Shown here: one piece after another, positions 3,202 to 56,019 of the stretch
Layout: every line of letters starts with the position of its first letter
Position numbering within the stretch: the stretch's first letter is position 1
Origin: Synergistaceae bacterium
Lineage (GTDB): Bacteria > Synergistota > Synergistia > Synergistales > Aminobacteriaceae
Direction of reading: 5' to 3'
Length of the DNA: 64,000 nucleotides
Assembly: GCA_009783355.1 (NCBI GenBank)
Contig: WRHH01000004.1
Coordinates: 32,852 to 96,851, forward strand
Position numbers and translations under genes: made by a program
Notes under the pieces: model-generated
Database searches by the model: none
Told to the model about the DNA's origin: nothing
What the model saw: the letters and a program-made list of their open reading frames with translations, nothing else

Positions 3202-4152
3202 TCATTGTATCGTCGCTACCATCACAGCCTTTATAGTGTGCATCCTGTTTTCGGCTTCGTCGAAAACTTTCGAGGCGGAAGATTCGAATACTTCTTCTGT
3301 TACTTCGTTTCCTTTCTCCGCTGGGAGGCAGTGTAAAAATATAGTATCGCCGCGACCGGTTGCGCTCATTAAATCCGTGTTCACCTGATATGGTCTTAAA
3401 AGTTTTACCCTTTTCTCCTTCTCGGCTTCCTCCCCCATTGACGCCCAAACATCTGCGTAAATTGCATCAGCGCCTTTTACTGCTTCTTTGGGATCATCGT
3501 AAACTTCTATGGCGCCTCCGCTTACTTCACAAAGCGCTTTACAGTCTGCAAGTATTTTTGGATCCGGGAACAAGCTCTTTGGCGATCCTACTGTATAGTG
3601 CATTCCAAGCTTTGAGCAGCCTATCATGAGGGCGTTTGACATGTTATTGCGTCCGTCTCCGACATAAGCGAGACGCACTCCTTTGAGGTTTTTACCGCTT
3701 GGAAGGCACTCCTGAAGCGTAAGGAAATCAGCCAATACCTGAGTAGGGTGATCCACGTCCGTCAATCCGTTCCATACAGGGACTCCCGACCATTGCGCGA
3801 GTTCTTCAACCATTGATTGTTTGAATCCTCTGAACTCGATTCCGTCAAACATTCTGCCCAGGACTCTTGCAGTATCCTTTACGTCTTCCTTGCCTCCAAG
3901 GTGAATATCATTTTTCCCCAGAAATTCCGGGTGTGCTCCTTCATCGACACATGCCACCACGAAAGCGCAACGTGTGCGCGTGGACGCTTTTTCAAAAAGC
4001 AGCGCTATGTTTTTGCCTTCAAGGAGGTTTCCGCGCGCGCCCGCGCGCTTTTTCGCCTTGAGATCGGCCGCGAGATCGAGAAGGTAAAGTATTTCTTCGG
4101 CGGAAAAATCCATTAACGTTAAAAAACTCTTTCCCTTAAGGTTGACTGGCAT
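3202..4152 (-). CDS. argF: Ornithine carbamoyltransferase
   Basis: STRTR carbamoyl-phosphate binding motif, HCLP motif, and SMG and DVW regions. Start at MPVNLKG, with a GGAGG RBS 9 nt upstream. The ORF-track M at 4194 is probably an upstream in-frame extension. Confidence 0.85.
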   Translation of the reverse strand: MPVNLKGKSFLTLMDFSAEEILYLLDLAADLKAKKRAGARGNLLEGKNIALLFEKASTRTRCAFVVACVDEGAHPEFLGKNDIHLGGKEDVKDTARVLGRMFDGIEFRGFKQSMVEELAQWSGVPVWNGLTDVDHPTQVLADFLTLQECLPSGKNLKGVRLAYVGDGRNNMSNALMIGCSKLGMHYTVGSPKSLFPDPKILADCKALCEVSGGAIEVYDDPKEAVKGADAIYADVWASMGEEAEKEKRVKLLRPYQVNTDLMSATGRGDTIFLHCLPAEKGNEVTEEVFESSASKVFDEAENRMHTIKAVMVATIQ

Positions 4153-13366: not shown

Positions 13367-13999
13367 ATGCCGGATATTATGAAAGTGTTTGCAAAAATTG
13401 ATGATATCGAATTTGTCGAACTTTGCACGGAGGGCTCGGGACAGCAGATAGCCGACGCTATAAAAAACGGCGCGAACGCGAACGCGAAGTATAAGGACGG
13501 TAAAAAGACAGCGCTTATGGTAGCCGGAGCTCTAAACTCCGACCCGGAAGCGATAGTTGTACTTGTTAGCGCGGGCGCCGACGTCAACGCGAAGGGCGAA
13601 ATAGGCTTGACGCCTCTCATGTGGGCGGCGGGCGGCAACTCCAACCCGGAGGCGGTAACGGCGCTCGTTAATGCGGGCGCTTCAATCGACGCGAAGAATA
13701 TATTTGGAAATACGCCACTGATGGAGGCGGCGCAAAACAATTCAAATCCTGAAGTAATAACAACCCTCATCAAAGCTGGCGCGGATGTCAACGCGAACAA
13801 CAACAATGGATGGACGCCTGTCATGCTGGCGGCTGCGCGAGACTCCGTCAGTCCTGAAATAATAACAATCCTTATCAATGCAAGAGCAGACCTGAAAGCA
13901 AGGAATTGCTTCAATAAAACAGCGTTAGACTACGCGAAAGAGAATGATAGACTTATGGATACAGATGTTTTGAAGAAACTTGAGGAAGCAAGCTGGTAG
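13367..13999 (+). CDS. Ankyrin repeat protein (cytoplasmic)
   Basis: Five or more ANK repeats (G.TPLM.AA...VV..L...GADVNA). The Ala-rich minus-strand ORF 13327..13914 is its antisense shadow. Confidence 0.75.
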   Translation: MPDIMKVFAKIDDIEFVELCTEGSGQQIADAIKNGANANAKYKDGKKTALMVAGALNSDPEAIVVLVSAGADVNAKGEIGLTPLMWAAGGNSNPEAVTALVNAGASIDAKNIFGNTPLMEAAQNNSNPEVITTLIKAGADVNANNNNGWTPVMLAAARDSVSPEIITILINARADLKARNCFNKTALDYAKENDRLMDTDVLKKLEEASW

Positions 14000-14024
14000 C
14001 ACAATGCACAATGAAAGACAAAGG
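13999..14024. repeat. Heptamer array (GCACAAT x2) plus AAAGACAAAGG box
   Basis: Sits directly after the ankyrin stop. Same family as arrays at 28094, 48279, 54559, 55970. Confidence 0.6.
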
Positions 14025-14075
14025 CCCATGAACTAAAGTTCACCACGATGAATGAAATTTGGGAACCTCTTGGTA

Positions 14076-14176
14076 AAGACTACTGGATTACCATGAAAGT
14101 AATCAAAAGGCAAAAACTAAAAGACAACTGAATTGCCGCGCCGCAAAAAGACGCGGCTCGCAAAGACGTTAATTAG
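14076..14176. repeat. Structured intergenic repeat element, copy A (81-bp core about 95% identical to 48710..48790)
   Basis: aagactactggattaccatgaaagtaatcaaaaggcaaaaactaaaagacaactgaattgccgcgccgcaaaaagacgcgg. Contains hairpins gattac/gtaatc and gccgc/gcggc. A related direct repeat ctggattatcacgaaagtaataaaaag lies at 14337. Confidence 0.7.
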
Positions 14177-14454
14177 GCAAGTTTCGTTCACTGTGGCGAG
14201 TGAAACTCGTGACCATTGCTTCGTCCCAAAAAGACGCTCCTCGCAAAGACGCTGCCCATTACACGTCTTTGCGACCGCGAGTGTAGCGTGGCGGGAAGCA
14301 ATCCAGAAGGCTCATAACATTGATAAGTTAATATTACTGGATTATCACGAAAGTAATAAAAAGTTATATTAAAAATATTTTATGGTAAAGACAAAAAGTA
14401 AATCGTATTGAGTAATTATTTTATTTATATCATTAATATAACATATTTGTTATA

Positions 14455-23078: not shown

Positions 23079-23198
23079 GGGGCTGTAACAAAAGCTGGCG
23101 GCAGAATGCCGTCCCTACAACATATTGTGCTCACAATACCAAACAACCACTATATATTGTGGTTTGGCTAGCCAATATACTACTTTTGTTACAGCCCC
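23079..23198. mobile_element. MITE-like element copy 1 (16-bp perfect TIR GGGGCTGTAACAAAAG)
   Basis: Left end ggggctgtaacaaaag, right end cttttgttacagcccc. An internal hairpin ggcggcagaatgccg and the whole element recur, reverse-complemented, at 48479..48618. Confidence 0.75.
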
Positions 23199-24267: not shown

Positions 24268-24342
24268 TGGAGCGGAAGACGGGATTTGAACCCGCGACCC
24301 CAACCTTGGCAAGGTTGTGCTCTACCCCTGAGCTACTTCCGC
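24268..24342 (-). tRNA. tRNA-Gly (anticodon GCC)
   Basis: Reverse complement reads GCGGAAGTAGCTCAGGGGTAGAGCACAACCTTGCCAAGGTTGGGGTCGCGGGTTCAAATCCCGTCTTCCGCTCCA. Cloverleaf with a GCC anticodon and encoded CCA. Confidence 0.9.
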
Positions 24343-26234: not shown

Positions 26235-28091
26235 ATGATGGCTAAAATAGTAGGAATTGATCTCGGAACGACAAACAGTTGCATATCAGTACAGGAAGGA
26301 GATCAGGCCACAATCATTCCGAATGCGGAAGGGATGCGCACGACTCCTTCGGTGGTGGCTTTCACAAAGGAAGGGGAACGCCTTGTCGGGCAGCTGGCAA
26401 AACGCCAGTCGATTGTGAACCCCGATCGCACAGTGATTTCAATCAAACGCGATATGGGAACCGACCGTAGAATAACGATAGACGGAAAGAGTTACACTCC
26501 GCAGGAGATCTCGGCGATGGTGCTTCAAAAACTGAAACATGACGCAGAGGAATATTTGGGGGAAACAATAAAACAGGCTGTCATAACCGTCCCCGCATAT
26601 TTCACCGATGCACAGCGCCAGGCGACGAAGGACGCCGGCACAATAGCGGGGCTTGATGTCTTAAGGATAATAAATGAACCTACAGCGGCCGCTCTTGCGT
26701 ATGGAGAGAATAAACAGGGGGAGCATAAAATACTGGTTTTCGATTTGGGCGGAGGGACTTTCGATGTTTCGCTGCTTGATGTAGGAGAGGGCGTCTTCGA
26801 AGTCCTTGCGACAGCGGGCGACAACAGGCTCGGCGGGGATGATTGGGATGAGCGGGTAGCCCGTTGGATGGTGGCTGAATTTAAGAAGAATGAGGGAATA
26901 GACCTTTCGAACGACCGAATGGCCATGCAAAGGCTCCGCGAGGCTGCGGAAAAAGCCAAGGTGGAGCTTTCATCAATGGCTGAGACCTCGATTTCCCTGC
27001 CATTCATAACAGCAAATCAGACTGGCCCGAAGCATCTTGAAATGGCGCTTTCCCGCGCAAGATTTGAGGAAATGACGGCTGACCTTCTTGACAGAGTCAT
27101 TGGGCCGACGAAACGCGCTATTGAGGACTCAAAGCTTCCTGTGGGCGAGATAAGCAAAATCCTTCTCGTCGGAGGTTCGACACGTATGCCGATGGTTCAG
27201 AAGAAAATTCGCGAGCTTCTCGGCAAGGAGCCGACAAAGGGAATAAACCCTGACGAATGCGTCGCCGCAGGCGCCGCAATTCAGGCGGCGATTTTAGGAG
27301 GAGACCATAAGGATATCGTCCTTGTCGACGTGACTCCGCTTTCTCTTGGGCTTGAAACTTTGGGAGGAGTTTTTACCAAAGTTATCGAGCGCAACACAGC
27401 GATACCGGTCTCAAAAAGTCAGGTATTCACAACTGCCGCGAATAATCAGACGCAGGTTGAGATTCTGGTGCTTCAAGGTGAACGCGCCATGGCTTCCGAC
27501 AACGTCAAACTCGGGCAGTTCACGCTTGACGGGATAGCGCCGGCGCCAAGGGGAATACCGCAGATTGAGGTGTCGTTCAACATTGACGTCAACGGCATTC
27601 TCAACGTTTCAGCCAAGGATAAAGGAACCGGAAAGAACCAGAAGATAACTATTCAGTCCTCCAACCTTTCAAAGGACGATATTGAGCGCATGAAAAAGGA
27701 CGCAGAAAGCCATGAGGAAGAGGACAAAAAGAAAAAAGAAGCCGTTGAAGCCAAAAACGAAGCTGACAGCCTTATTTTTTCAGCTGAAAAAGTAATGAAC
27801 GATCTTGGAGACAAGATGACTCCAGATGAAAAGGGCAAGGTAAACAGCAAAATTGATGTCCTGAAAAGGGCTGTCGAGGGAGGCAACATAAGCTCAATAA
27901 ACAGCGCAAAAGAGGACCTTAACAAGACAATGCACGAGTTTTCCACCAGGCTTTATCAGGCGGCAGGAGCGGAATCTCCGACGGGCGACGCAGGCGCTGG
28001 CACAGGACATCAGGGGTATCAGGAACAAAGTGGTAATACTAACGACAGCGATACGGTGGATGCGGAGTTTAGCGATCACGGACAGGGGTAA
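26235..28091 (+). CDS. dnaK: Chaperone DnaK
   Basis: [19 protein letters not shown], and a canonical Hsp70 throughout. 618 aa. Confidence 0.95.
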
Positions 28092-28093
28092 AT

Positions 28094-28137
28094 GCAATGC
28101 ACAATGCACAATGCACAATGAAAGGCAAAAGATAAAG
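28094..28137. repeat. Heptamer array (GCACAAT x3-4) plus GAAAGGCAAAAGA box immediately after the dnaK stop
   Basis: gcaatgcacaatgcacaatgcacaatgaaaggcaaaagataaag. Confidence 0.7.
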
Positions 28138-28210
28138 AACTGTTTTGATATTGGGGTGCGGGTTATGGTTTTCGTACCAAATATAATGCAAGCGCAATAA
28201 AGACACTTTA

Positions 28211-28240: not shown

Positions 28241-28464
28241 ATTTGCTTTTTGGCTCGTCGCTTTGTCGTAAATTATGCCCGTTAATCGAACATGGTTGTG
28301 ATGTATTAACGCAGAATTGACAAAGCAGGATGTGTTACAGTAGAATCGTCAACAGCAAACGATTAAGTGGATTCATGCAACGCGGCTAATTTATCAAACC
28401 TGTTTAGCAAGCAGGAAAAAATGTGGCGCCGACCCGAATGGTGACGTAACATTACTTATGAGCT

Positions 28465-28725
28465 TTGTTCTGGATATATTTCAAAGGTTATGGGAAAGGT
28501 AGGTTAAAAAGTTTGAAACAGAATTTCACTGTTTTGATTGAGCAAGGCGAAGATGGCGCTTACGTTGCGACTGTTCCTGCGTTGAAGAGTTGTTATACAC
28601 AAGCTGATACAGTATCGGAACTACTTGAAAAGGTACATGAAGTAATTGAATTATGCTTGGAAGAAAATGAAGCTCAAGCTTATACCAAGTTTATCGGTGT
28701 TCAGCAAGTGGAAGTCACAGTATGA
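28465..28725 (+). CDS. hicB: HicB-family (UPF0150) antitoxin, orphan
   Basis: FTVLIEQGEDGAYVATVPALKSCYTQADTVSELLEKVHEVIELCLEE matches the HicB/UPF0150 consensus. No hicA could be read upstream. Confidence 0.6.
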   Translation: MFWIYFKGYGKGRLKSLKQNFTVLIEQGEDGAYVATVPALKSCYTQADTVSELLEKVHEVIELCLEENEAQAYTKFIGVQQVEVTV

Positions 28726-28730
28726 GCCAA

Positions 28731-28960
28731 CTAAAAATCATTACAAGTATACAAATGTGCAAGCTGTTGGAGGTTGTAAGACCACCAAATAACCTTTTTT
28801 CGACGCGACAAATTTTTTCGCTTCAATGCCTTATCAATATCCACGCCGCCTAACGCGTTCATCATTGCCTTAAGCTCATACGCTATCGCATCTGCTTCAG
28901 CTTTGCTGTTTTCAGCGGCAAGAGCCGTCAAAATCTTTCTTTAGCTTCCAGTTTTTGCTA
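28731..28960 (-). pseudogene. Deletion-derivative remnant of the flotillin/NAD-kinase-like operon
   Basis: 28771..28830 matches 30559..30617 (3' end of the NADK-like gene). 28834..28956 matches 31633..31757 (flotillin C-terminal coding). The fused ORF reads LTALVAENSKAEADA...ALGGVDID. Confidence 0.75.
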
Positions 28961-29031
28961 AATTTGCTCCCATCTGGAACGCATGTTCACAATCTGTTGG
29001 GAATTGTTCCTTTTTCTGTCTTGCTTTGTTG

Positions 29032-30318
29032 TTACCACGGTAAAGGGATTATTTCAAAAGCATTTGCAACAGGGCCGACCGGCATGACCACCCTTCTTCT
29101 CACCGAGATAGCGCCTTCCTCTTTATTAAAGTAGCTCGCCGGGTAGAACCTGTCATCTGACGATGTGCTTCCACTATGATCAGGTTTCCCGGCCGGATAA
29201 TAGGTTATATCCTCAATAACGGAATCGTCAATGCTCTGCCACTGTCCCTGCCTTTTGGGCGTAAGCTGCTCCCTCTCCGTGTAGCCGGGGATGTTCGCGT
29301 TCCAATACGTGAACATACAATTGGTGAAATAGAGGCTGCCGTCGGATTCGCGCCAGTTGCCCGCCTTAAGCGTCATAAGCGAAGCCATGGACATGGAGCC
29401 AACACGGGTATATGTGACCCGCACTTCCTTAAAAGTGCCGTCGTCCTTGAATTCAAAATATATGTCGCCGCCGCCGGCAAGTCCATATTCGCCAATCACA
29501 TGAATCGTGCCGCCCCAAATACCGAAATATTTTTGTTCCTCTGCGGTAGTTGTTCTTGTGGTCAGCGGCTTTACAGGTTTCGGCGGCGGGGGCGCGGCCT
29601 GTTTTTCATGCGCCAAAGGAATATGAACAAAAGCGTTTGCAACAGCCCCGGTCGGCATGACCACCCTTCTTTCGAGGCTGAATGAACCGTTCTCACCATT
29701 GACGTAGCTTGCCGGGTATATACGGTCATATTCACTTTTGGTTCCCGATTTAGTGGGGGCGGACTCTCCGGCGGGGCAGTAAAAAGCGTCCAATATTACG
29801 ACATCGTCCTCGCTTTGCCACTGCAATATGGTCATTGGCGTGATTTGTTCCGCTGCTTCCACGTAACCGGGGTTAAACGTATTCCAGGACGTGGTCATAC
29901 GGTTGGTTAAATAAAGGTTACCGTTGGATAAATGCCAGCTGCCCGCCGCAAAAGTCATTAAGTTGGCATGATACGATAACGGCCTCTCTGACAGTTCCCG
30001 CCGGACGATGCCGACCAATACCTCCTTGAACGTGCCGTCGTCCTTGAGCTCATAATATATTTCCCCTATACCGCTCAGTTCGTCGGGATATCGGTCTATG
30101 TATCTGTAATAGTCCGTGTATCCACGGACGATGCCGCCCCAAATACCGACGTATTTTTGTTCTTCTGCGGCAATCGTTCTTGCAGTCGGCGGTTCGGTCG
30201 CTCCCGGGCTTCCTGCCCTCTGCGGCGCCTGCGCGTCCTGCGCAATGGCGGCGACCGCCGTGGCTGCGAAGATACCAGATGAGATTATTAGCGCGAGGGT
30301 CAAGATTTTCTTTTTCAT
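29032..30318 (-). CDS. Secreted protein made of two tandem homologous domains of about 190 aa each (unknown function)
   Basis: Signal peptide MKKKILTLALIISSGIFAATAVAAIA. Repeats begin TTAEEQKY(V/F)GIWGG and end RRVVMP(T/V)G(A/P)VANAF. Confidence 0.6.
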   Translation of the reverse strand: MKKKILTLALIISSGIFAATAVAAIAQDAQAPQRAGSPGATEPPTARTIAAEEQKYVGIWGGIVRGYTDYYRYIDRYPDELSGIGEIYYELKDDGTFKEVLVGIVRRELSERPLSYHANLMTFAAGSWHLSNGNLYLTNRMTTSWNTFNPGYVEAAEQITPMTILQWQSEDDVVILDAFYCPAGESAPTKSGTKSEYDRIYPASYVNGENGSFSLERRVVMPTGAVANAFVHIPLAHEKQAAPPPPKPVKPLTTRTTTAEEQKYFGIWGGTIHVIGEYGLAGGGDIYFEFKDDGTFKEVRVTYTRVGSMSMASLMTLKAGNWRESDGSLYFTNCMFTYWNANIPGYTEREQLTPKRQGQWQSIDDSVIEDITYYPAGKPDHSGSTSSDDRFYPASYFNKEEGAISVRRRVVMPVGPVANAFEIIPLPW

Positions 30319-30563
30319 TAGATGTGATTTCCTCTCTGTATTGATCTTTCCATTTTATATCATAAACACGCAGATGGGCGTACTGCTGTTGTTCCTATGC
30401 ATGCGTCAGGTATAGATAGAACGCTGATAAGAAAAATTCTGAAAATTATGATATGTCTATTGACGACTATAACAACAGAGTATAAACATTTTCTGTGGAG
30501 TAGTAAATATCTTTCGTAATCGGATCCGAATTCATGTTGGAAATTCTGCTGTATTCGTGGTTG

Positions 30564-31496
30564 TCAGACCACTAAATAGCCTTTTTTCGACGCGACAGAT
30601 ATTTTCGCTTCAATACCTGAATTGAATCGTAAAAAATCATGCTCAATTCCATCGCTGAAAATTACCCCGCCTTCCGGCATCTGCGAAATCACCAATAATG
30701 GAGAGTTGGTAATTGTCCCAAAAACAATACCTGCGCCTGTGGTATTGCTGTGGAAAGGTTCGCGTACCGAGTAATATAGAAACTCGCTGTCCCATTCGGG
30801 GAAAGTAATGCTAGAGTTTATGATTTTGCCGGTAATAACTCCGGCTATTCTGCTGGCGCCTGCAATTACGCTTTTTAACCAGCCGGTTGAACCAAGCCCC
30901 GTGGAAACAATAATTCCGCTAGATGATTGATTCTCCTCCTGTCCGTTGATTTTAATTTTGTATCTTGCCGAAACATGGGTTTGCCTTCCGATAAAAAAGT
31001 CGTTAACGGCCAATAAGCTTTGCCCATCATTCAGTTCGGCTATTGCCATTGAAATTTCTTTTTTTTGCCTGCGATTACCTAGCACTTCCCGAACAACGAC
31101 GGGCACATCAGCACAGCGAAAAGGGAGCAGCACACCGTCATATCTGGCAGGATCGGGGTTTATGGCAATAAGCGGCTGACCATTCAGGTATTTCAGCGTG
31201 TTTGCTACTAAGCCGTCCTGACCGATGACAACGACTATGTCATCTTCACTGAACATGAAATTGGGCGCGTATTCTCTATCGATTAATTGAACCCGAGCCA
31301 AATTTTTCAAGTGGTTAATTGAAGCGAAAACCGATTCTTTATAAATCCTGTCCTCTTCAACATACTCCTTGATATCTCCGCCCATTTTTTCCACATAAAA
31401 GGCTGCTTGAGCCATATTATTGAACTTTTTTACCAATTCATCCGCGCGAGTTGACCTTGTTATGACGACGATTTTGCGTTCGGGTACATAACTCAT
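30564..31496 (-). CDS. ATP-NAD kinase-fold protein (COG3199-like)
   Basis: VVVIGQDGLVAN (GGDGT-like), NDG, and SSGIIVSTGLGSTGW (the DGlivSTPtGSTAY equivalent). Start overlaps the flotillin stop (ATGA). Confidence 0.55.
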   Translation of the reverse strand: MSYVPERKIVVITRSTRADELVKKFNNMAQAAFYVEKMGGDIKEYVEEDRIYKESVFASINHLKNLARVQLIDREYAPNFMFSEDDIVVVIGQDGLVANTLKYLNGQPLIAINPDPARYDGVLLPFRCADVPVVVREVLGNRRQKKEISMAIAELNDGQSLLAVNDFFIGRQTHVSARYKIKINGQEENQSSSGIIVSTGLGSTGWLKSVIAGASRIAGVITGKIINSSITFPEWDSEFLYYSVREPFHSNTTGAGIVFGTITNSPLLVISQMPEGGVIFSDGIEHDFLRFNSGIEAKISVASKKGYLVV

Positions 31497-32509
31497 GGCG
31501 TCATCATTTCACGAATCAAATCGGGGGTGATATTCAATTGGCCGATTCTTTCCGCTTTACCCGCCAGATTCTGGAACGCATTTGCTATTAGAGTTTGCGG
31601 CTGCATGCCAATCACAGTCAATGCTTTGATGACGTCAATATCCACGCCGCCTAACGCGTTCATCATTGCCTTAAGCTCATACGCTTTAGCGTCTGCTTCA
31701 GCTTTGCTGTTTTCAGCGACAAGCGCCGTCAAAATCTTTCTTTTTTCTTCCAGTTTGATTTCCGCATCAAGCTGCTCATTTTTCAATTCATTTTGCCTTC
31801 TCATTTCAGCTTGTTCGGCATTGAGCTTAGTCTCGCGAACCTGCCAGCGTTTGTTTTCAACGGCGATTTCCGTATTGTACTCGTTTTCCTTGACGCCGCG
31901 CTCTTGTTCAATGGAGGCGTTTCTACGTTCATAAATAGCGTCGTCGGCCATTTTTAAGATTTTTTCTCTGGTTTCCGCCTCTAGTGCCCTTGAGGTTTCT
32001 TTGTTTGGTAGAACTGACAGAACCGTCAAACCCATGATCTCGATACCCAGCAATTGAATTTCTTCATTTCGCCGCAAGTCTTCAAGAATGCTCTTTGCTA
32101 GAGTTTCACTGGAGCGGATGGCGTCAGAAAGTTTTAAACCCTCCAAATGCTTTTTTGCCATGACGCGAACCAGATTACTTATTCTTACGGGAAGCTTTTC
32201 CGGGTCGTCGGATATGTAACTCTTTTTCCAACCTCTGACATCCAGTGTGAAATTAAGGAGTTTGATTAAATTTTTGTTATCTACTATACGATATGTGACC
32301 TGGCCTTGAATGGAAACCGACTGAAAATCCGCTGTGGCTTCTTCGAACATGAAAGGACAGTCGTCGCTCGCAATAGGCGCCACGACAATTGATGTGGTGG
32401 GAGCGTAGTAAAAAAAGGAAATTCCCGCGCCTTCTTTCACTACATGACCGTTTTTGAATTTAAGAACGTACTCGTTTGGTTGAAATTTGACGTAATGAAG
32501 CCCGAACAT
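31493..32509 (-). CDS. SPFH/band-7 flotillin-like protein (YqiK-like)
   Basis: SPFH domain N-terminus, and a long Glu/Ala/Lys-rich coiled-coil with a flotillin C-terminal pattern. Confidence 0.7.
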   Translation of the reverse strand: MFGLHYVKFQPNEYVLKFKNGHVVKEGAGISFFYYAPTTSIVVAPIASDDCPFMFEEATADFQSVSIQGQVTYRIVDNKNLIKLLNFTLDVRGWKKSYISDDPEKLPVRISNLVRVMAKKHLEGLKLSDAIRSSETLAKSILEDLRRNEEIQLLGIEIMGLTVLSVLPNKETSRALEAETREKILKMADDAIYERRNASIEQERGVKENEYNTEIAVENKRWQVRETKLNAEQAEMRRQNELKNEQLDAEIKLEEKRKILTALVAENSKAEADAKAYELKAMMNALGGVDIDVIKALTVIGMQPQTLIANAFQNLAGKAERIGQLNITPDLIREMMTP

Positions 32510-32531
32510 GATAATCCCTCCTAAGAATTAA

Positions 32532-33251
32532 TTATTTTTTTGTGTATAACTTTGCCGGACGATGCCCTTTGTCGCTCGTATACTTATCAGTTTCCTGAAC
32601 AAGGCCAATAATCTTAAGCCGAAAATTAGCCGTTGGAACCTTTTTCCAAAGAATCGCTTCATATGCGTTTTGAAGCTGAGTCAAAGTGAACTCGAGAGGT
32701 AATAAATGGAAAATTACGTTGCTGTATAGGATTTTAGACTGCAGTCGCCCTAAAGCCATTTTTACGATACCGAAGTGATCAAAACCAAAATCCGGTTCGG
32801 TTATTATGAGCTCCTTGTTCTGGAATACCGGTCTCCGGTCTGATGTATTCTGCACCGTAAACCATACCGCATCGCTTTGATATTTTTTTGACTCTTCTTC
32901 GTTCATAAGGCCTAAATATGATATGGAAATCACTCTTGCGCGCGGATCCCTGTCTAAATCGCAAAATGTGTAAAGTTGTTCTAAATAGCACCGGTCAACA
33001 TGTGACTTCTCGGAAATTTTTCTGCATATATTGTCGCTTGGCATCTCGTCAATATTCAAAAAACCTCCCGGCAAACACCACCTGTCCCGATACGGTTCAA
33101 CCGGTCGCTTGTACAACAGAACCCTTAAATAGGTATCCGGCAGCTTCCTATAACTGTCCGCTTCCTGTGTCTTTATGGTAAAAACAACTGCGTCGGTGCA
33201 AACAAAAGGGTGTTCATAATTATATATACTGCCCACTATCCACGCCTCCAT
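32532..33251 (-). CDS. nrtR: NrtR-family regulator (Nudix-like domain plus C-terminal winged helix)
   Basis: Nudix-like CLPGGFLNIDE. C-terminal FTLTQLQNAYEAILWKKVPTANFRLKIIGL...RPAKLY is typical of the NrtR wHTH. Confidence 0.65.
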   Translation of the reverse strand: MEAWIVGSIYNYEHPFVCTDAVVFTIKTQEADSYRKLPDTYLRVLLYKRPVEPYRDRWCLPGGFLNIDEMPSDNICRKISEKSHVDRCYLEQLYTFCDLDRDPRARVISISYLGLMNEEESKKYQSDAVWFTVQNTSDRRPVFQNKELIITEPDFGFDHFGIVKMALGRLQSKILYSNVIFHLLPLEFTLTQLQNAYEAILWKKVPTANFRLKIIGLVQETDKYTSDKGHRPAKLYTKK

Positions 33252-33265
33252 TAGTTATTATAAAA

Positions 33266-33292
33266 TAGATAATATCACTTAGATATTATCTA
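33266..33292. promoter_or_regulatory. 10-bp inverted repeat (TAGATAATAT-N7-ATATTATCTA), candidate operator just upstream of nrtR
   Basis: Perfect palindrome read directly in the sequence, 15 bp from the nrtR start codon. Confidence 0.4.
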
Positions 33293-33572
33293 ATATAATA
33301 TATCATCATCGGTTTGTCAAGCCCCCCCGCGTTATCTAAAGAAAATCTCTTGCACTCATCATTTTGATATACTATTTTGCTGCTATTAAAAGATATAGTG
33401 TTGCGAAGGAATGTTTCTGAACGGATAAAGACAAAAATTTGTGTTTCCGCTGGCGACACAAATAATCTGTACAAATCATGACGTTTGTTTATGGCTGTAT
33501 TCATGTTAATATATGTAATTATTTTGCAAATAGTAGTATTATTTTGGAAAACGAATTGAATAGAAAGGGTGG

Positions 33573-36457: not shown

Positions 36458-37456
36458 TTAGTTTATCATACTTTGTATTTGTTCCACGGGCAAACCTGTA
36501 CTCTTAGTGATTATTTCCAGTGGTATTCCATTAAAAAGAAGATTCCTTGCCACTTCTTCTTTACCTTTTACAAAGCCTTTTTCCATGCCTTTTTCCATGC
36601 CTTTTTCCATGCCTTTTTCCATGCCGCGCTCTTCAGCCATTCTTTCTTCCACTTGTTTAAGAAAAGGCTCATACATAAGCTTTCCCTCCTTATTCAGTTG
36701 TTGGCAGTATTCCCAATATTGTTTCTGCAACATTTCATCTTTCAGATTTAATATACGTATTATAAAAAGTACAAGGTCGCGTTTCTCGTTCTTGTCCCAG
36801 CTCCGTTCAGCGAGAAGTTCCGTCAACGTTCGCAGGTATTTAAACTTCTGAATCTCCTCTTTTGTTTTCTGCGCACACATTGCAGCGTAAAGGGCTAGGT
36901 CTATCGGGTTGTCGCTTATTCGTAACTCGTCGTCGTTGAGTTCCATCAAAACGAGATTATTATACCTGTAAACAATTTCCGTGCCAAAATTGGAATGAGA
37001 ATAAAACCGCTCATCTTTTCTATGACCGCTTGTAATGATAGCCAGAGCCACTGGATTTTTCCTGTAATGCGCATATATCAGACAACAGTAATGAAACATT
37101 CTCTCGGCAAGATTGCCTCCACCAGAACCTTGTTGAGCCTCACAATGGAGGAGTATCCACTTATCATTCCCGTTTTTCAATGGCACTTCAAGTATGAGAT
37201 CGGCAAAATGCGGGCTCGTATGAATTGACGGGTCTCCCGTATTCAGGATGTCACGAAATTCCTTATCGAGAAGCCGGTGAGACCGGTTCGTATCAACTGC
37301 ATTGTAAAGCTCCGGGAGCGCCCTTTTAAGCAAATAGTAAATGAAACGGTCTATTAAATCCTTCCAATAACTATCGTAATCGAAATATTCCTGCTTTTCG
37401 GAGCCGTTATAATATGCCCCCGTATTCGCTATATCTGTGATGTTCTCTGCCGTCAT
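36458..37456 (-). CDS. Rpn-family (YhgA-like) PD-(D/E)XK recombination-promoting nuclease/putative transposase
   Basis: N-terminal PD-(D/E)XK core. C-terminal DUF4351-like tail with (GMEK)x4 encoded by a 12-nt tandem repeat at 36576..36625, and ARNLLFNGIPLEIITKSTGLPVEQIQ. Confidence 0.65.
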   Translation of the reverse strand: MTAENITDIANTGAYYNGSEKQEYFDYDSYWKDLIDRFIYYLLKRALPELYNAVDTNRSHRLLDKEFRDILNTGDPSIHTSPHFADLILEVPLKNGNDKWILLHCEAQQGSGGGNLAERMFHYCCLIYAHYRKNPVALAIITSGHRKDERFYSHSNFGTEIVYRYNNLVLMELNDDELRISDNPIDLALYAAMCAQKTKEEIQKFKYLRTLTELLAERSWDKNEKRDLVLFIIRILNLKDEMLQKQYWEYCQQLNKEGKLMYEPFLKQVEERMAEERGMEKGMEKGMEKGMEKGFVKGKEEVARNLLFNGIPLEIITKSTGLPVEQIQSMIN

Positions 37457-44762: not shown

Positions 44763-44837
44763 AAAGAAACAATACTTAGAGCTTAGAACGTAGATGAGTA
44801 AATCGGGCATTTTGGTTCGTAATAATAAAAGGTATTG

Positions 44838-44868
44838 AAATAAGCGGGCGGCATAATGCCGCCCCTAC
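44838..44868. repeat. Fragment of the MITE internal hairpin (gcgggcggcataatgccgcccctaca)
   Basis: Reverse complement matches the gtaggggcggcattctgccgcc core of the element at 48556. May terminate the livK transcript. Confidence 0.5.
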
Positions 44869-44910
44869 ATTGCTATAACCACATTTCTTTGTTGGAGGGA
44901 GGCATGGATA

Positions 44911-45771
44911 GTGGATTTTTTCGTTCAGGTCCTGATTGACGGATTGATGAACGGCGCGATTTATGGGCTCGTGGCCGCAGGGTTGAGCCTGATTTGGGGC
45001 GTGATGGACGTTATTAACTTCGCGCACGGGGAGTTCCTGATGGTGGCGATGTATACCTGCTACTGGATTGGAATGCTCGTCGGGTTGGACCCGCTGTTCT
45101 CGTGGGTGCTTACCGGCGCCTTTTTGTTTTTCCTTAGCGCGGGTTCGTATAAATTTATTGTTCGGCGCAGCATCGGCAAGGCGGCAATGGCGCCTCTGCT
45201 TGCGACGTTTGGGCTGTCGATTTTTCTAAAAAACTTCTGCCTTAACAGGTTTACCCCAAACTTCAGGCTGCTCTCAGGAACTTCTCTGGAAGGCAAAGTA
45301 ACGCACATTTTCGGAGCAATAGTCTCGCAGCCTAAATTAGTGACAGCTATTTTTTCATTAGTTATGCTGTGCGTTCTCCATTACATGATTAAGAAAACGA
45401 GAATAGGGAGGGCGATACAGGCGACGGCCATGGACAGGGAAGCTGCTGAACTTATGGGAGTAGATACGGAGCGTATATTTACGCTCGTGTTCGGAATTGG
45501 CGGGATGTGTGTAGGTATAGCGGGCGGTTTTATGACATCATATTTGGCTGTTTTTCCCGAGGTGGGAGCGCTCTTTAGCCTCATCGCGTTTGTCGTGGTG
45601 GCGCTCGGCGGATTTGGAAGCATTCCCGGCGCGCTGTGCGCGGCTCTTCTTATTGGCTTAGTCGAGTCGTTCGCTGGTTTTTATATTGCGCCCGTAATGA
45701 AATACGTTGCGGTTTTCGCCCTTTACCTCGCCGTTGTTTTAGTTAGGCCAAAGGGCCTTTTCGGGTGGTGA
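44911..45771 (+). CDS. livH: Branched-chain amino acid ABC permease
   Basis: GTG start 8 nt after GGAGGGAGG. 286-aa polytopic protein. Confidence 0.75.
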   Translation: MDFFVQVLIDGLMNGAIYGLVAAGLSLIWGVMDVINFAHGEFLMVAMYTCYWIGMLVGLDPLFSWVLTGAFLFFLSAGSYKFIVRRSIGKAAMAPLLATFGLSIFLKNFCLNRFTPNFRLLSGTSLEGKVTHIFGAIVSQPKLVTAIFSLVMLCVLHYMIKKTRIGRAIQATAMDREAAELMGVDTERIFTLVFGIGGMCVGIAGGFMTSYLAVFPEVGALFSLIAFVVVALGGFGSIPGALCAALLIGLVESFAGFYIAPVMKYVAVFALYLAVVLVRPKGLFGW

Positions 45772-48326: not shown

Positions 48327-48345
48327 TGAGCAAGAGAAGAAAGGG

Positions 48346-48389
48346 CTTTATAGGGGAGGCATTATTCCTCCCCTATAAAGTCTTTTTTT
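48346..48389 (+). terminator. Rho-independent terminator after livF
   Basis: Hairpin ctttataggggagg-cattatt-cctcccctataaag followed by TCTTTTTTT. Confidence 0.75.
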
Positions 48390-48478: not shown

Positions 48479-48618
48479 AGGCGGCTGTAACAAAAGTAGT
48501 ATATTAGCTAGTCGAACCACAATATATAGTGGTCAAGCGGCATAATGAACACAATATATTGTAGGGGCGGCATTCTGCCGCCAGCTTTTGTTACAGCCCC
48601 GCTTTTGTTACAGCCCCC
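48479..48618. mobile_element. MITE-like element copy 2 (inverted relative to copy 1; right TIR tandemly duplicated)
   Basis: ggctgtaacaaaag ... ggggcggcattctgccgcc ... cttttgttacagccccgcttttgttacagcccc. Reverse complement aligns with 23079..23198. Confidence 0.75.
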
Positions 48619-48709
48619 TAACTAAGCTATATTTGACAACTCGAAGTCTTGAGGATTTTCTTTTGTCTTTAACTCCACACTCCACACCAATGTCATTAAG
48701 TTAAGTAAA

Positions 48710-48830
48710 AAAGACTCTGGATTACCATGAAAGTAATCAAAAGGCAAAAACTAAAAGACCACTGGATTGCCGCGCCGCAAAAAGACGCGGGCGTAAAGAG
48801 CGGCTTCGCCGAGGCGCAAAGACGATTAGG
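48710..48830. repeat. Structured intergenic repeat element, copy B
   Basis: 81-bp core with 4 mismatches against 14076..14156, followed by a related cgcaaagacg(a)ttagg segment. Confidence 0.7.
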
Positions 48831-54601: not shown

Positions 54602-54686
54602 AAACAGTTGCGAGTTGCGAGTGGCGAGTGAAAGGCAAAAGACAGAGGCAAGAGGCTTCCATTGAACATTGTGCATTGAACATTGA
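54559..54686. repeat. Heptamer arrays (GTTGCGA/GTGGCGA x about 8; CATTGAA x4) with a GAAAGGCAAAAGA box
   Basis: gttgcgagtggcgagttgcgagttgcgagtgaaagacc...gttgcgagttgcgagtggcgagtgaaaggcaaaagacagagg...cattgaacattgtgcattgaacattgaa. Confidence 0.7.
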
Positions 54687-55236: not shown

Positions 55237-55971
55237 ATGGAGGTGGAAATTATGTACACTGCTAAGAGAAAAATAATCATGGCAATATTTTGCACGGCGC
55301 TGCTCGTTGCCTTCGGGGCGGGTTTTGCGGGTCGAAGTTCGGCAGCGGTAGGAGACGTTATCAAACTCGGCGGATTTGATTGGCGCGTGCTCGAAGTGAA
55401 GGATGGAAACGCCCTCATCATAAGCGACAAAATATTGTCGAAGGGCGCGTACAATATACCGGATAAAGGTGTGTTGTACGATTCATTGGGTTCAGTCTGG
55501 CAGGATACCCCCGTTAAATGGGAAGAATGTACTTTGCGGCAATATCTGAACGGGCAGTTTTATGATTCGACTTTCTCAAATGAAGAAAAGGGACGAATAG
55601 TCGAGACGACGATAGTAAACAATGATAACCCATGGTTCGGTATGGCGGGCGGTAACGACACCACGGACAAAGTGTTTTTGTTGAGCCTTGAGGAAGTAGT
55701 GTTATATTTCGGCGACAGCGGAGAATTGGGGAACCGGCCAAAAGACGCTGACACTATAAACGACAGCTTCAATGAGAAGAGGATTGCAGAAACGCTGGAC
55801 GGCAATGCTTGCAGATGGCTTCTTAGGTCTCCCGGCCTCTTTCACCGCATGTGCGACAGCAACCACGTCTATGCCGGTTGTGTCGCTGTGAACGGATATC
55901 TCTCCGTAATAGGCGAATATGTCCATAATGAATACAGCGGGATTCGCCCCGCGATGTGGATAAAACAATAA
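55237..55971 (+). CDS. Secreted paralog of the BlaR1-like sensor domain (DUF6273-like extracytoplasmic domain)
   Basis: Signal peptide. About 60% identity to residues 340-548 of the 56480 gene. Shared blocks include GDVIKLGGFDWRVL, SNEEKGRIVET, KVFLLS, WLLRSPG and RPAMW. Confidence 0.65.
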   Translation: MEVEIMYTAKRKIIMAIFCTALLVAFGAGFAGRSSAAVGDVIKLGGFDWRVLEVKDGNALIISDKILSKGAYNIPDKGVLYDSLGSVWQDTPVKWEECTLRQYLNGQFYDSTFSNEEKGRIVETTIVNNDNPWFGMAGGNDTTDKVFLLSLEEVVLYFGDSGELGNRPKDADTINDSFNEKRIAETLDGNACRWLLRSPGLFHRMCDSNHVYAGCVAVNGYLSVIGEYVHNEYSGIRPAMWIKQ

Positions 55972-55980
55972 AGACAAAGC

Positions 55981-56019
55981 ACAATGCACAATGTTCAACG
56001 ATTGTGCATTGTTTTTTTT
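55981..56019 (+). terminator. Strong rho-independent terminator built from the GCACAAT heptamer and its inverted copy
   Basis: acaatgcacaat-gttcaacg-attgtgcattgt, then TTTTTTTT. Confidence 0.85.

Follow-up and report, generated by a model that had tools for sequence, protein, structure and literature searches.

A dispersed palindromic repeat with an NrdR-like core in termite-gut Synergistaceae

Two gaps between operons in a 64,000-nt stretch of Synergistaceae DNA (hereafter the window) hold the same short sequence, in opposite orientations and bounded by inverted repeats. What kind of element is this, how might it have come to lie there, and what does it carry between its ends? The first-pass annotation took it for an undescribed, small, non-autonomous mobile element of MITE type that might double as a terminator. 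Here we follow that reading through the two copies, their relatives elsewhere and the interior of the element.

Two copies and a hairpin fragment

Both full copies were recovered in opposite orientation, as first described. Each spans 120 bp, with a symmetric layout of a 36-bp arm, a 48-bp core and a second 36-bp arm. The parts outside the core, and a fragment elsewhere in the window, are as follows.

23079..23198, + strand: copy 1, full 120-bp element, hairpin arm at left
23079..23094, + strand: left terminal inverted repeat of copy 1, GGGGCTGTAACAAAAG
23183..23198, − strand: right terminal inverted repeat of copy 1
23097..23113, − strand: GC hairpin of copy 1 (GGCGGC/GCCGTC), with AGCTTTTGTT after it, terminator-like towards modA
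48481..48600, − strand: copy 2, full 120-bp element, reverse complement of copy 1
48566..48582, + strand: GC hairpin of copy 2, GGCGGCATTCTGCCGCC then AGCTTTTGTT, terminator-like, downstream of the liv operon
48601..48617, + strand: second, tandem hairpin-proximal terminal 17-mer beside copy 2, GCTTTTGTTACAGCCCC
44842..44869, + strand: hairpin fragment (GGGCGGCATAATGCCGCCC + CTACA) between livK and livH

The ends of copy 1, GGGGCTGTAACAAAAG and CTTTTGTTACAGCCCC, are perfect 16-bp inverted repeats. Perfection had been claimed for both copies, but in copy 2 the distal repeat has one mismatch (GCGG..., 15/16) and only the other end is 16/16. The two copies are 88% identical over 118 nt, slightly closer than the 85% or so first noted, and the tandem doubling of the terminal repeat at copy 2 was confirmed. 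Throughout the window the terminal 16-mer occurs six times with up to three mismatches, where 0.45 occurrences are expected by chance. A covariance model built from 18 copies scored copy 1 at 130.9 bits and copy 2 at 127.2 bits, and otherwise returned from the window only a weak match at the fragment (15.3 bits, 44831-44932). The two copies also occupy unchanged positions in metagenome contigs assembled independently from the same organism (L001, L002, L004 and L005), with identical or near-identical contigs coming from samples JGI 3300002505 and ENA ERZ27257320. The DnaK encoded in the window shows 100% identity to a protein from a Synergistaceae MAG at NCBI, in keeping with a host from this family.

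The genes on either side of copy 1, one of 165 aa and one for a modA-like binding protein, are both on the minus strand, and copy 2 follows the liv ABC operon and precedes a ubiA-like gene. Placement in inter-operon gaps describes the two copies, both of which are intergenic, but not the fragment, which sits within the liv operon in the livK-livH spacer. No transposase gene, nrd gene or nrdR was found in the window. Both copies carry a GC hairpin, as first reported, although the exact sequence ggcggcattctgccgcc is found only in copy 2; the hairpin of copy 1 is imperfect and reads GGCGGCAGAATGCCGTCC, with one G-T pair. At each copy the hairpin and the AGCTTTTGTT after it are co-oriented with the upstream gene, and in copy 2 the hairpin and T-tract were flagged as terminator-like. 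These features agree with the suggestion that the element may double as a terminator. Immediately after the liv operon, at 48337-48389, lies a strong hairpin with a 14-bp stem followed by TCTTTTTTT; copy 2 thus stands behind an existing terminator. A promoter-like site was seen in copy 1 only.

The isolated hairpin copy reported after livK is present, and matches the hairpin plus CCCTACA at 26 of 28 positions, but it lies at 44842-44869 rather than 44838..44868 and its loop differs. A full degenerate copy at 44831-44932 was not counted, because its apparent right arm is the conserved coding start of livH. In a related strain (L002) this spacer holds the right end of a full element, ending in ATATACTACTTTTGTTACAGCCCC directly before TAC, where the window has GCCGCCCC directly before TAC, and the L002 end abuts a CCCCTAC junction that is also present at the window fragment. 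This is the sole strain-level difference that we saw; the other contig of the L002 assembly ends just past livK. On one reading the window lost the inner part of an element by deletion between two CCCCTAC repeats, and on the other the second strain gained an element, the spacer being too diverged to choose between them. The fragment itself may be a solo arm left by deletion, or it may be an ordinary intercistronic hairpin.

Members and surroundings of the repeat family

To find relatives we scanned for the repeat pair as CTGTAACAAAAG, 73–103 nt, CTTTTGTTACAG. The scan returned 22 loci from metagenome contigs and only two from species-representative genomes, one in an Eggerthellaceae MAG and a doubtful one in Saprospiraceae. 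The Eggerthellaceae locus has full 16-bp ends and the overall layout of the window copies. Two loci, the Saprospiraceae one (L032) and L052, have only a 12-nt core of the repeat and lack the interior boxes described below; we regard them as doubtful or chance members, and the L052 copy sits within a long ORF. About 12 independent copies belong to the subfamily of the window copies, with up to 97% identity to copy 1, and the remainder fall into subfamilies with differing arms. One copy from another subfamily shares its contig with a pepF gene that is closest, among named relatives, to those of Synergistaceae. No further copies were found by the covariance model in the ~206 kb of fetched loci. 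In viral contigs the repeat-pair scan found no element, and the 25 single 16-mer matches there were all chance matches in coding DNA; a plasmid search likewise gave no match, and we rejected a phage or plasmid origin on these grounds. Two observations stand beside this census: a 169-bp variant at L042 26-194 has the same repeat cores and a GCCGCCAGCTTTTGTTACAG end, lacks the canonical box pair, and scores 50 bits with the covariance model, and an IS3-type orfA (HTH_Tnp_1) at L043 1690-1986, 122 nt from one copy, is probably an unrelated neighbour.

Every copy that we accept as convincing is intergenic. Simple ORF calls put eight of the loci between convergent genes, and no clearly divergent gap holds a copy. 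The flanks and neighbouring genes (modA-like, ubiA-like, liv, DctM and histidine kinase genes among them) are unrelated from locus to locus, and both orientations occur. We found no empty sites; related contigs carry the copy in place, break at the repeat or are non-syntenic. As single-stranded DNA the whole element folds into a long hairpin with z of about −6 to −7 (−6.8 for copy 1), and across copies 10 pairs are altered on both sides, against 4.0 in shuffled alignments. The stem sequence of the GC hairpin varies among subfamilies while its pairing is kept, and many copies have T-rich sequence 3' of the right end.

The element has no match in Rfam, where only a tRNA of the window exceeded the gathering threshold and no match in the region of the element had E below 6, which sets aside known RNA families, and our literature search found the repeat sequence in no paper. 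The elements of the window are thus members of an undescribed dispersed repeat family in termite-gut Synergistaceae, with relatives elsewhere, and the description as a small, non-coding, dispersed repeat is borne out by some 20 further metagenome loci and the Eggerthellaceae MAG. The evidence that the element is mobile consists of these dispersed copies and the one between-strain difference at livK-livH.

Two checks had been proposed with the MITE reading, for target-site duplications and for an autonomous partner. We scanned 21 copies for direct repeats of 2–10 bp at boundary offsets of up to 8 nt; none of 3–10 bp was present at any offset, and only a trivial palindromic GC inside the repeat recurred. 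No autonomous partner with matching ends was found in the window, the ~206 kb of loci or the viral contigs, and six-frame translations of the window and loci held no IS1595-type, Y1 or HUH motif. The flanks of the copies are A/T-rich, and in other subfamilies the inverted repeat continues outward with differing sequences. What stands of the MITE reading is the small, non-coding, dispersed repeat bounded by inverted repeats; the palindromic repeats form a new, MITE-like family in which the target duplication expected of a classical MITE was not found.

The NrdR-like core

The first-pass annotation missed the interior, a canonical tandem NrdR-like operator that is the most conserved and informative part of the element. 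NrdR sites consist of two partly palindromic 16-bp boxes with conserved C4, A6, A8, T9, T11 and G13 and an AT-rich centre, separated by a linker of 15–16 bp whose length matters and whose sequence does not, and binding needs both boxes (PMC13584703). The corresponding parts of the two copies are as follows.

23115..23130: NrdR-like box 1 of copy 1, CTACAACATATTGTGC, matrix score 14.8 bits, 6/6 conserved positions
23131..23146: 16-bp spacer between the boxes of copy 1
23147..23162: NrdR-like box 2 of copy 1, CCACTATATATTGTGG, matrix score 17.2 bits, joint top in the window, 6/6 conserved positions
48517..48564: NrdR-like operator of copy 2, CCACAATATATAGTGG, 16-bp spacer, ACACAATATATTGTAG, pair score 32.6 bits

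All six conserved positions are present in each of the four boxes, which are 88–100% AT between C4 and G13. The strict pattern of two such boxes is confined within the window to the two copies, where 0.013 occurrences are expected by chance, and a looser published regex (PMC12051234) finds the same two places and no others, but is unspecific, with 1.3 expected by chance. With a matrix built from 10 validated boxes of E. coli and S. coelicolor, the copies gave pair scores of 32.6 and 32.0 bits, and no other pair in the window scored above 10.5; in shuffled sequence the top pair averaged 12.8 bits (sd 2.7) and never exceeded 24.1. The four boxes of the copies are also the four best single boxes in the window (14.8–17.2 bits), and they score equal to or above boxes that have been validated experimentally.

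Conservation within the family follows the same pattern. The spacer is 16 bp long in 18/18 aligned copies, with variable sequence. Among eight subfamily representatives, diversity was 0.11 at the 12 NrdR-critical columns, 0.39 at the other box columns, 0.60 in the spacer and 0.54–0.60 in the arms, making the critical columns the most conserved interior positions across subfamilies. The invariance of the terminal repeats in this alignment is partly imposed by the search pattern; the interior conservation is not such an artefact, since the pattern fixed only the ends and the distance between them. By every published sequence criterion, the core looks exactly like a canonical tandem NrdR operator.

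The operators of E. coli nrdAB, nrdHIEF and nrdDG and of S. coelicolor nrdAB and nrdRJ share with the element the two 16-bp boxes, the six positions, the AT-rich centre and a 15–16-bp spacer of free sequence. Box 2 of copy 1 is identical to box 1 of E. coli nrdAB at 13/16 positions and has 12 contiguous nt in common with box 1 of E. coli nrdEF. Unlike these operators, the element has no nrd gene downstream, is set between inverted repeats and occurs in many copies at unrelated intergenic sites. Among the neighbouring genes of the window and fetched loci, no nrd gene adjoined any copy, which places these sites outside the sole known NrdR regulon. A tblastn search of the window and fetched loci with an approximate E. 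coli NrdR query gave no nrdR match. The literature that we searched contained no link between NrdR boxes and transposable or repetitive elements. Published surveys restricted the search for NrdR boxes to the 500 nt before RNR operons (PMC12051234), so dispersed NrdR sites would have been missed by design.

The same type of operator turned up on another kind of mobile element. A BLAST search of 2.3 Gb of phage records with the element gave only matches to the box region, at box pairs in Streptococcus prophages, and the covariance model matches the prophage site at model positions 37–84. The prophage pair reads ACACAATATGTTGTGT, 15 bp, ACACTATATATTGTGT (L058 2499-2550; Javan536, record 3280-3329), and perfect pairs of NrdR type are also present in prophages SA-TP2, Javan231 and Javan233. 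The site falls in a stretch without annotation, with a small HTH ORF and the antirepressor gene of an early operon directly downstream; no nrd gene is near. In contrast to the element, the prophage has a single early-promoter site without bounding inverted repeats.

We suggest that the element is a palindromic repeat with an NrdR core, served by NrdR as a host factor and moved in trans, a reading to which we give about an even chance of being right. NrdR kinks each box by ~90 degrees, which amounts to a 180-degree turn overall (PMC9110341). Were the host NrdR tetramer, loaded with dATP and ATP, to bind the core on double-stranded DNA, kinks of ~90 degrees per box would fold the DNA of the element into a U-turn and set the two 36-bp arms and the terminal repeats side by side. 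The element would then carry with it an operator, or a roadblock, that responds to NrdR. In RNA, the GC hairpin together with the CUUUUGUU of the terminal repeat would serve as an intrinsic terminator that faces outward. An enzyme acting in trans would recognise the terminal repeats and move the copies, by a chemistry that does not duplicate the target site.

Correia/NEMIS elements of Neisseria and the BIMEs (RIB/RIP) of E. coli are intergenic palindromic repeats of ~100–150 bp with terminal inverted repeats and a central site for the DNA-bending protein IHF, and they have terminator and transcript-processing effects. By analogy, NrdR would be an architectural or regulatory host factor of our element, as IHF is of theirs. 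The proposed factor differs, however, and there is no sequence similarity; Correia elements moreover duplicate TA, whereas TA does not flank the copies described here.

A further proposal, possible but held more tentatively, is that a whole NrdR operator was taken up by a mobile repeat and now serves as its functional centre, so that NrdR would fold the element, couple its transposition or its effect on neighbours to the dATP/ATP state, and see its sites spread well outside the nrd regulon. The box pairs of the Streptococcus prophages may be open to the same interpretation. NrdR is known only as a repressor of ribonucleotide reductase genes, and an NrdR-like site on a mobile repeat is unreported. 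If the proposal is true, the NrdR regulon would be enlarged by a repeat that keeps a perfect NrdR operator under selection, which would provide a bacterial case of a transcription-factor site spread by a mobile repeat and would suggest that a mobile element is served by a host factor that senses nucleotide pools.

Alternative readings and other repeats in the window

Of the alternatives, the one that survives best concerns how the element moves. It may be a single-stranded-DNA hairpin element handled by an HUH or rolling-circle enzyme, like REPIN/RAYT, IS200/IS605 or IS91, with no target duplication and with 3' read-through possible; we think this rather unlikely. It fits the lack of a target-site duplication in the 21 copies, their extragenic placement, often between convergent genes, and the long hairpin formed by the whole element with its compensatory changes, as well as the subterminal hairpin 18 nt from one end. 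It also fits several signs of irregular ends. The hairpin-proximal 17-mer is tandemly doubled at three to four independent loci (copy 2, L053, L054 and partly L044), L053 has a tandem partial unit that joins CAGCCCC to CTACAAC, and copy 2 and the otherwise unrelated L053 have a flank in common:

48618..48651, + strand: flank past the doubled repeat, common to copy 2 and L053 (alignment ~32 nt past the outer repeat)

Taken together with the outward extension of the inverted repeat in other subfamilies, the partner and motifs that were looked for and not found in the window and loci, and the flanking (C/T)TNGTAG motif described below, these signs are hard to square with a DDE cut at the tips and would agree somewhat more easily with single-strand or rolling-circle copying. 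The element has inverted-repeat ends but no target duplication, and with the doubled ends and the shared flank this suggests that insertion follows a mechanism outside the standard MITE model.

The bottom strand further reads GTAGGG plus a palindrome, as in REP sequences, and like REPINs and REP doublets the element is an extragenic inverted doublet that forms a long hairpin, has compensatory stem changes and leaves no target duplication. Both also have hairpins with a flanking GTAG-like motif, but in the element the CTAC that suggests a REP-type GTAG is positions 1–4 of NrdR box 1, which explains its conservation. A (C/T)TNGTAG motif in the left flank, beside the hairpin-proximal end, is present in only about half of the copies. 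No RAYT was found in the window and fetched loci, and the element differs in its conserved ends, which are not palindromes themselves, unlike those of REPs, and 16-bp inverted ends conserved in sequence are atypical of IS200/IS605 or IS91. With the motif explained by box 1 and no Y1 or HUH motif in the window and loci, a REP/RAYT origin is weakened.

A second alternative, which we consider unlikely, concerns the boxes. Rather than NrdR sites, they may simply form the AT-rich inner stem, complementary to itself, of an ordinary terminator repeat akin to REP or ERIC, or may bind some other dimeric protein. Each box is palindromic and box 2 is roughly box 1 read on the opposite strand, so the symmetry of the element does account for some of the agreement with a palindromic consensus. 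In L049, complementary changes at the box centres (AATAAATT, AATTTATT) keep the pairing between boxes and not the AT centre, and the neighbouring genes give no link to nrd. Symmetry alone, however, does not require each box to be palindromic by itself, nor does it require C and G 8 bp apart, A6 and T11, or a fixed 16-bp spacer with drifting sequence, and the scores match or exceed those of validated boxes. In vitro, NrdR accepts boxes with AA or TT centres (PMC13584703). The boxes could also be recognised by some other protein, such as a recombinase belonging to the element itself.

The classical MITE is slightly less probable again. It would be an internally deleted, DDE-moved derivative of the IS1016 group of the IS1595 family, in which the boxes are a remnant of a transposase promoter or operator, or incidental. 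IS6 ends read GGnnCTGTTGCAAA, and an IS6-family origin was dropped in favour of the documented ends of IS1016/ISApl4; neither fits, given that no duplication was found. ISApl4, of the IS1016 group, ends in the inverted repeat GGGGCTGTACTAGA and makes direct repeats that are 8 bp long and A/T-rich (PMC12561309). The termini of our element (GGGGCTGTA...) agree with that repeat at nine of the first 10 nt, its A/T-rich flanks resemble IS1016 targets, and its size, lack of coding capacity and intergenic placement fit a MITE. Against this, IS1016 elements make direct repeats of 7–9 bp and 0/21 copies have one of 3–10 bp. IS1016-group elements are ~710 bp long with a transposase gene and 8-bp repeats, whereas our element has neither gene nor duplication and carries an NrdR-like core; the window holds no transposase, and no IS1595-type motif occurs in the window and loci. 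ISApl4 has only ~58 non-coding bp, which leaves no room for a 48-bp operator and a hairpin (PMC12561309). The outward extension of the inverted repeat in other subfamilies would also be unusual for tips defined by a transposase.

Last and most improbable is a static element, either a cis-regulatory or small-RNA gene or an integron attC-type site, for which the conserved structure, the T-rich sequence after the right end and the AAC...GTT triplets within the terminal repeats could be cited, but which is contradicted by the unrelated flanks and neighbouring genes, the two orientations, the absence of an Rfam match and a promoter-like site confined to copy 1. For attC in particular, CTGTAAC and GTTACAG fit RYYYAAC (R'') and GTTRRRY (R') at only 5/7 positions each, and the copies are isolated among housekeeping genes, with no co-oriented arrays and no integrase; we rejected it.

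The window contains other repeats besides the element with the NrdR-like core. A second, unrelated repeat of ~90 nt (CTGGATTACCATGAAAGTAATCAAAAGGCAAAAACTAAAAGAC...ATTGCCGCGCCGCAAAAAGACGCGG) is present in two copies, 14075-14166 and 48709-48800, that are ~93–97% identical; one of them lies ~100 nt from copy 2 of the element, and the repeat has no Rfam match. Units of CGCAAAGACG related to it recur at 14158-14274. Short runs of GCACAATG type are found in both orientations in intergenic sequence (13999-14034, 28089-28141, 54656-54685 and 55969-56014), and a tandem repeat with a 12-nt period occupies 36553-36624 within the ORF at 36458-37456.

A relative with 98% DnaK identity (L057) differs from the window at two further places. 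At ~400–7450 of L057 a prophage with integrase, holin, peptidase_M15 and Big_2/collagen tail genes lies by the tRNA and hrcA; it is absent from the window, where the tRNA is at 24271-24342 on the minus strand. Conversely, some 5.3 kb of the window (28252-33558) is missing in L057, where dnaK directly precedes the region that begins at 33559 in the window. This segment holds paralogous gene pairs with internal repeats (families D3, D10, D11, D13 and D15), an SPFH gene and an NrtR-like regulator.
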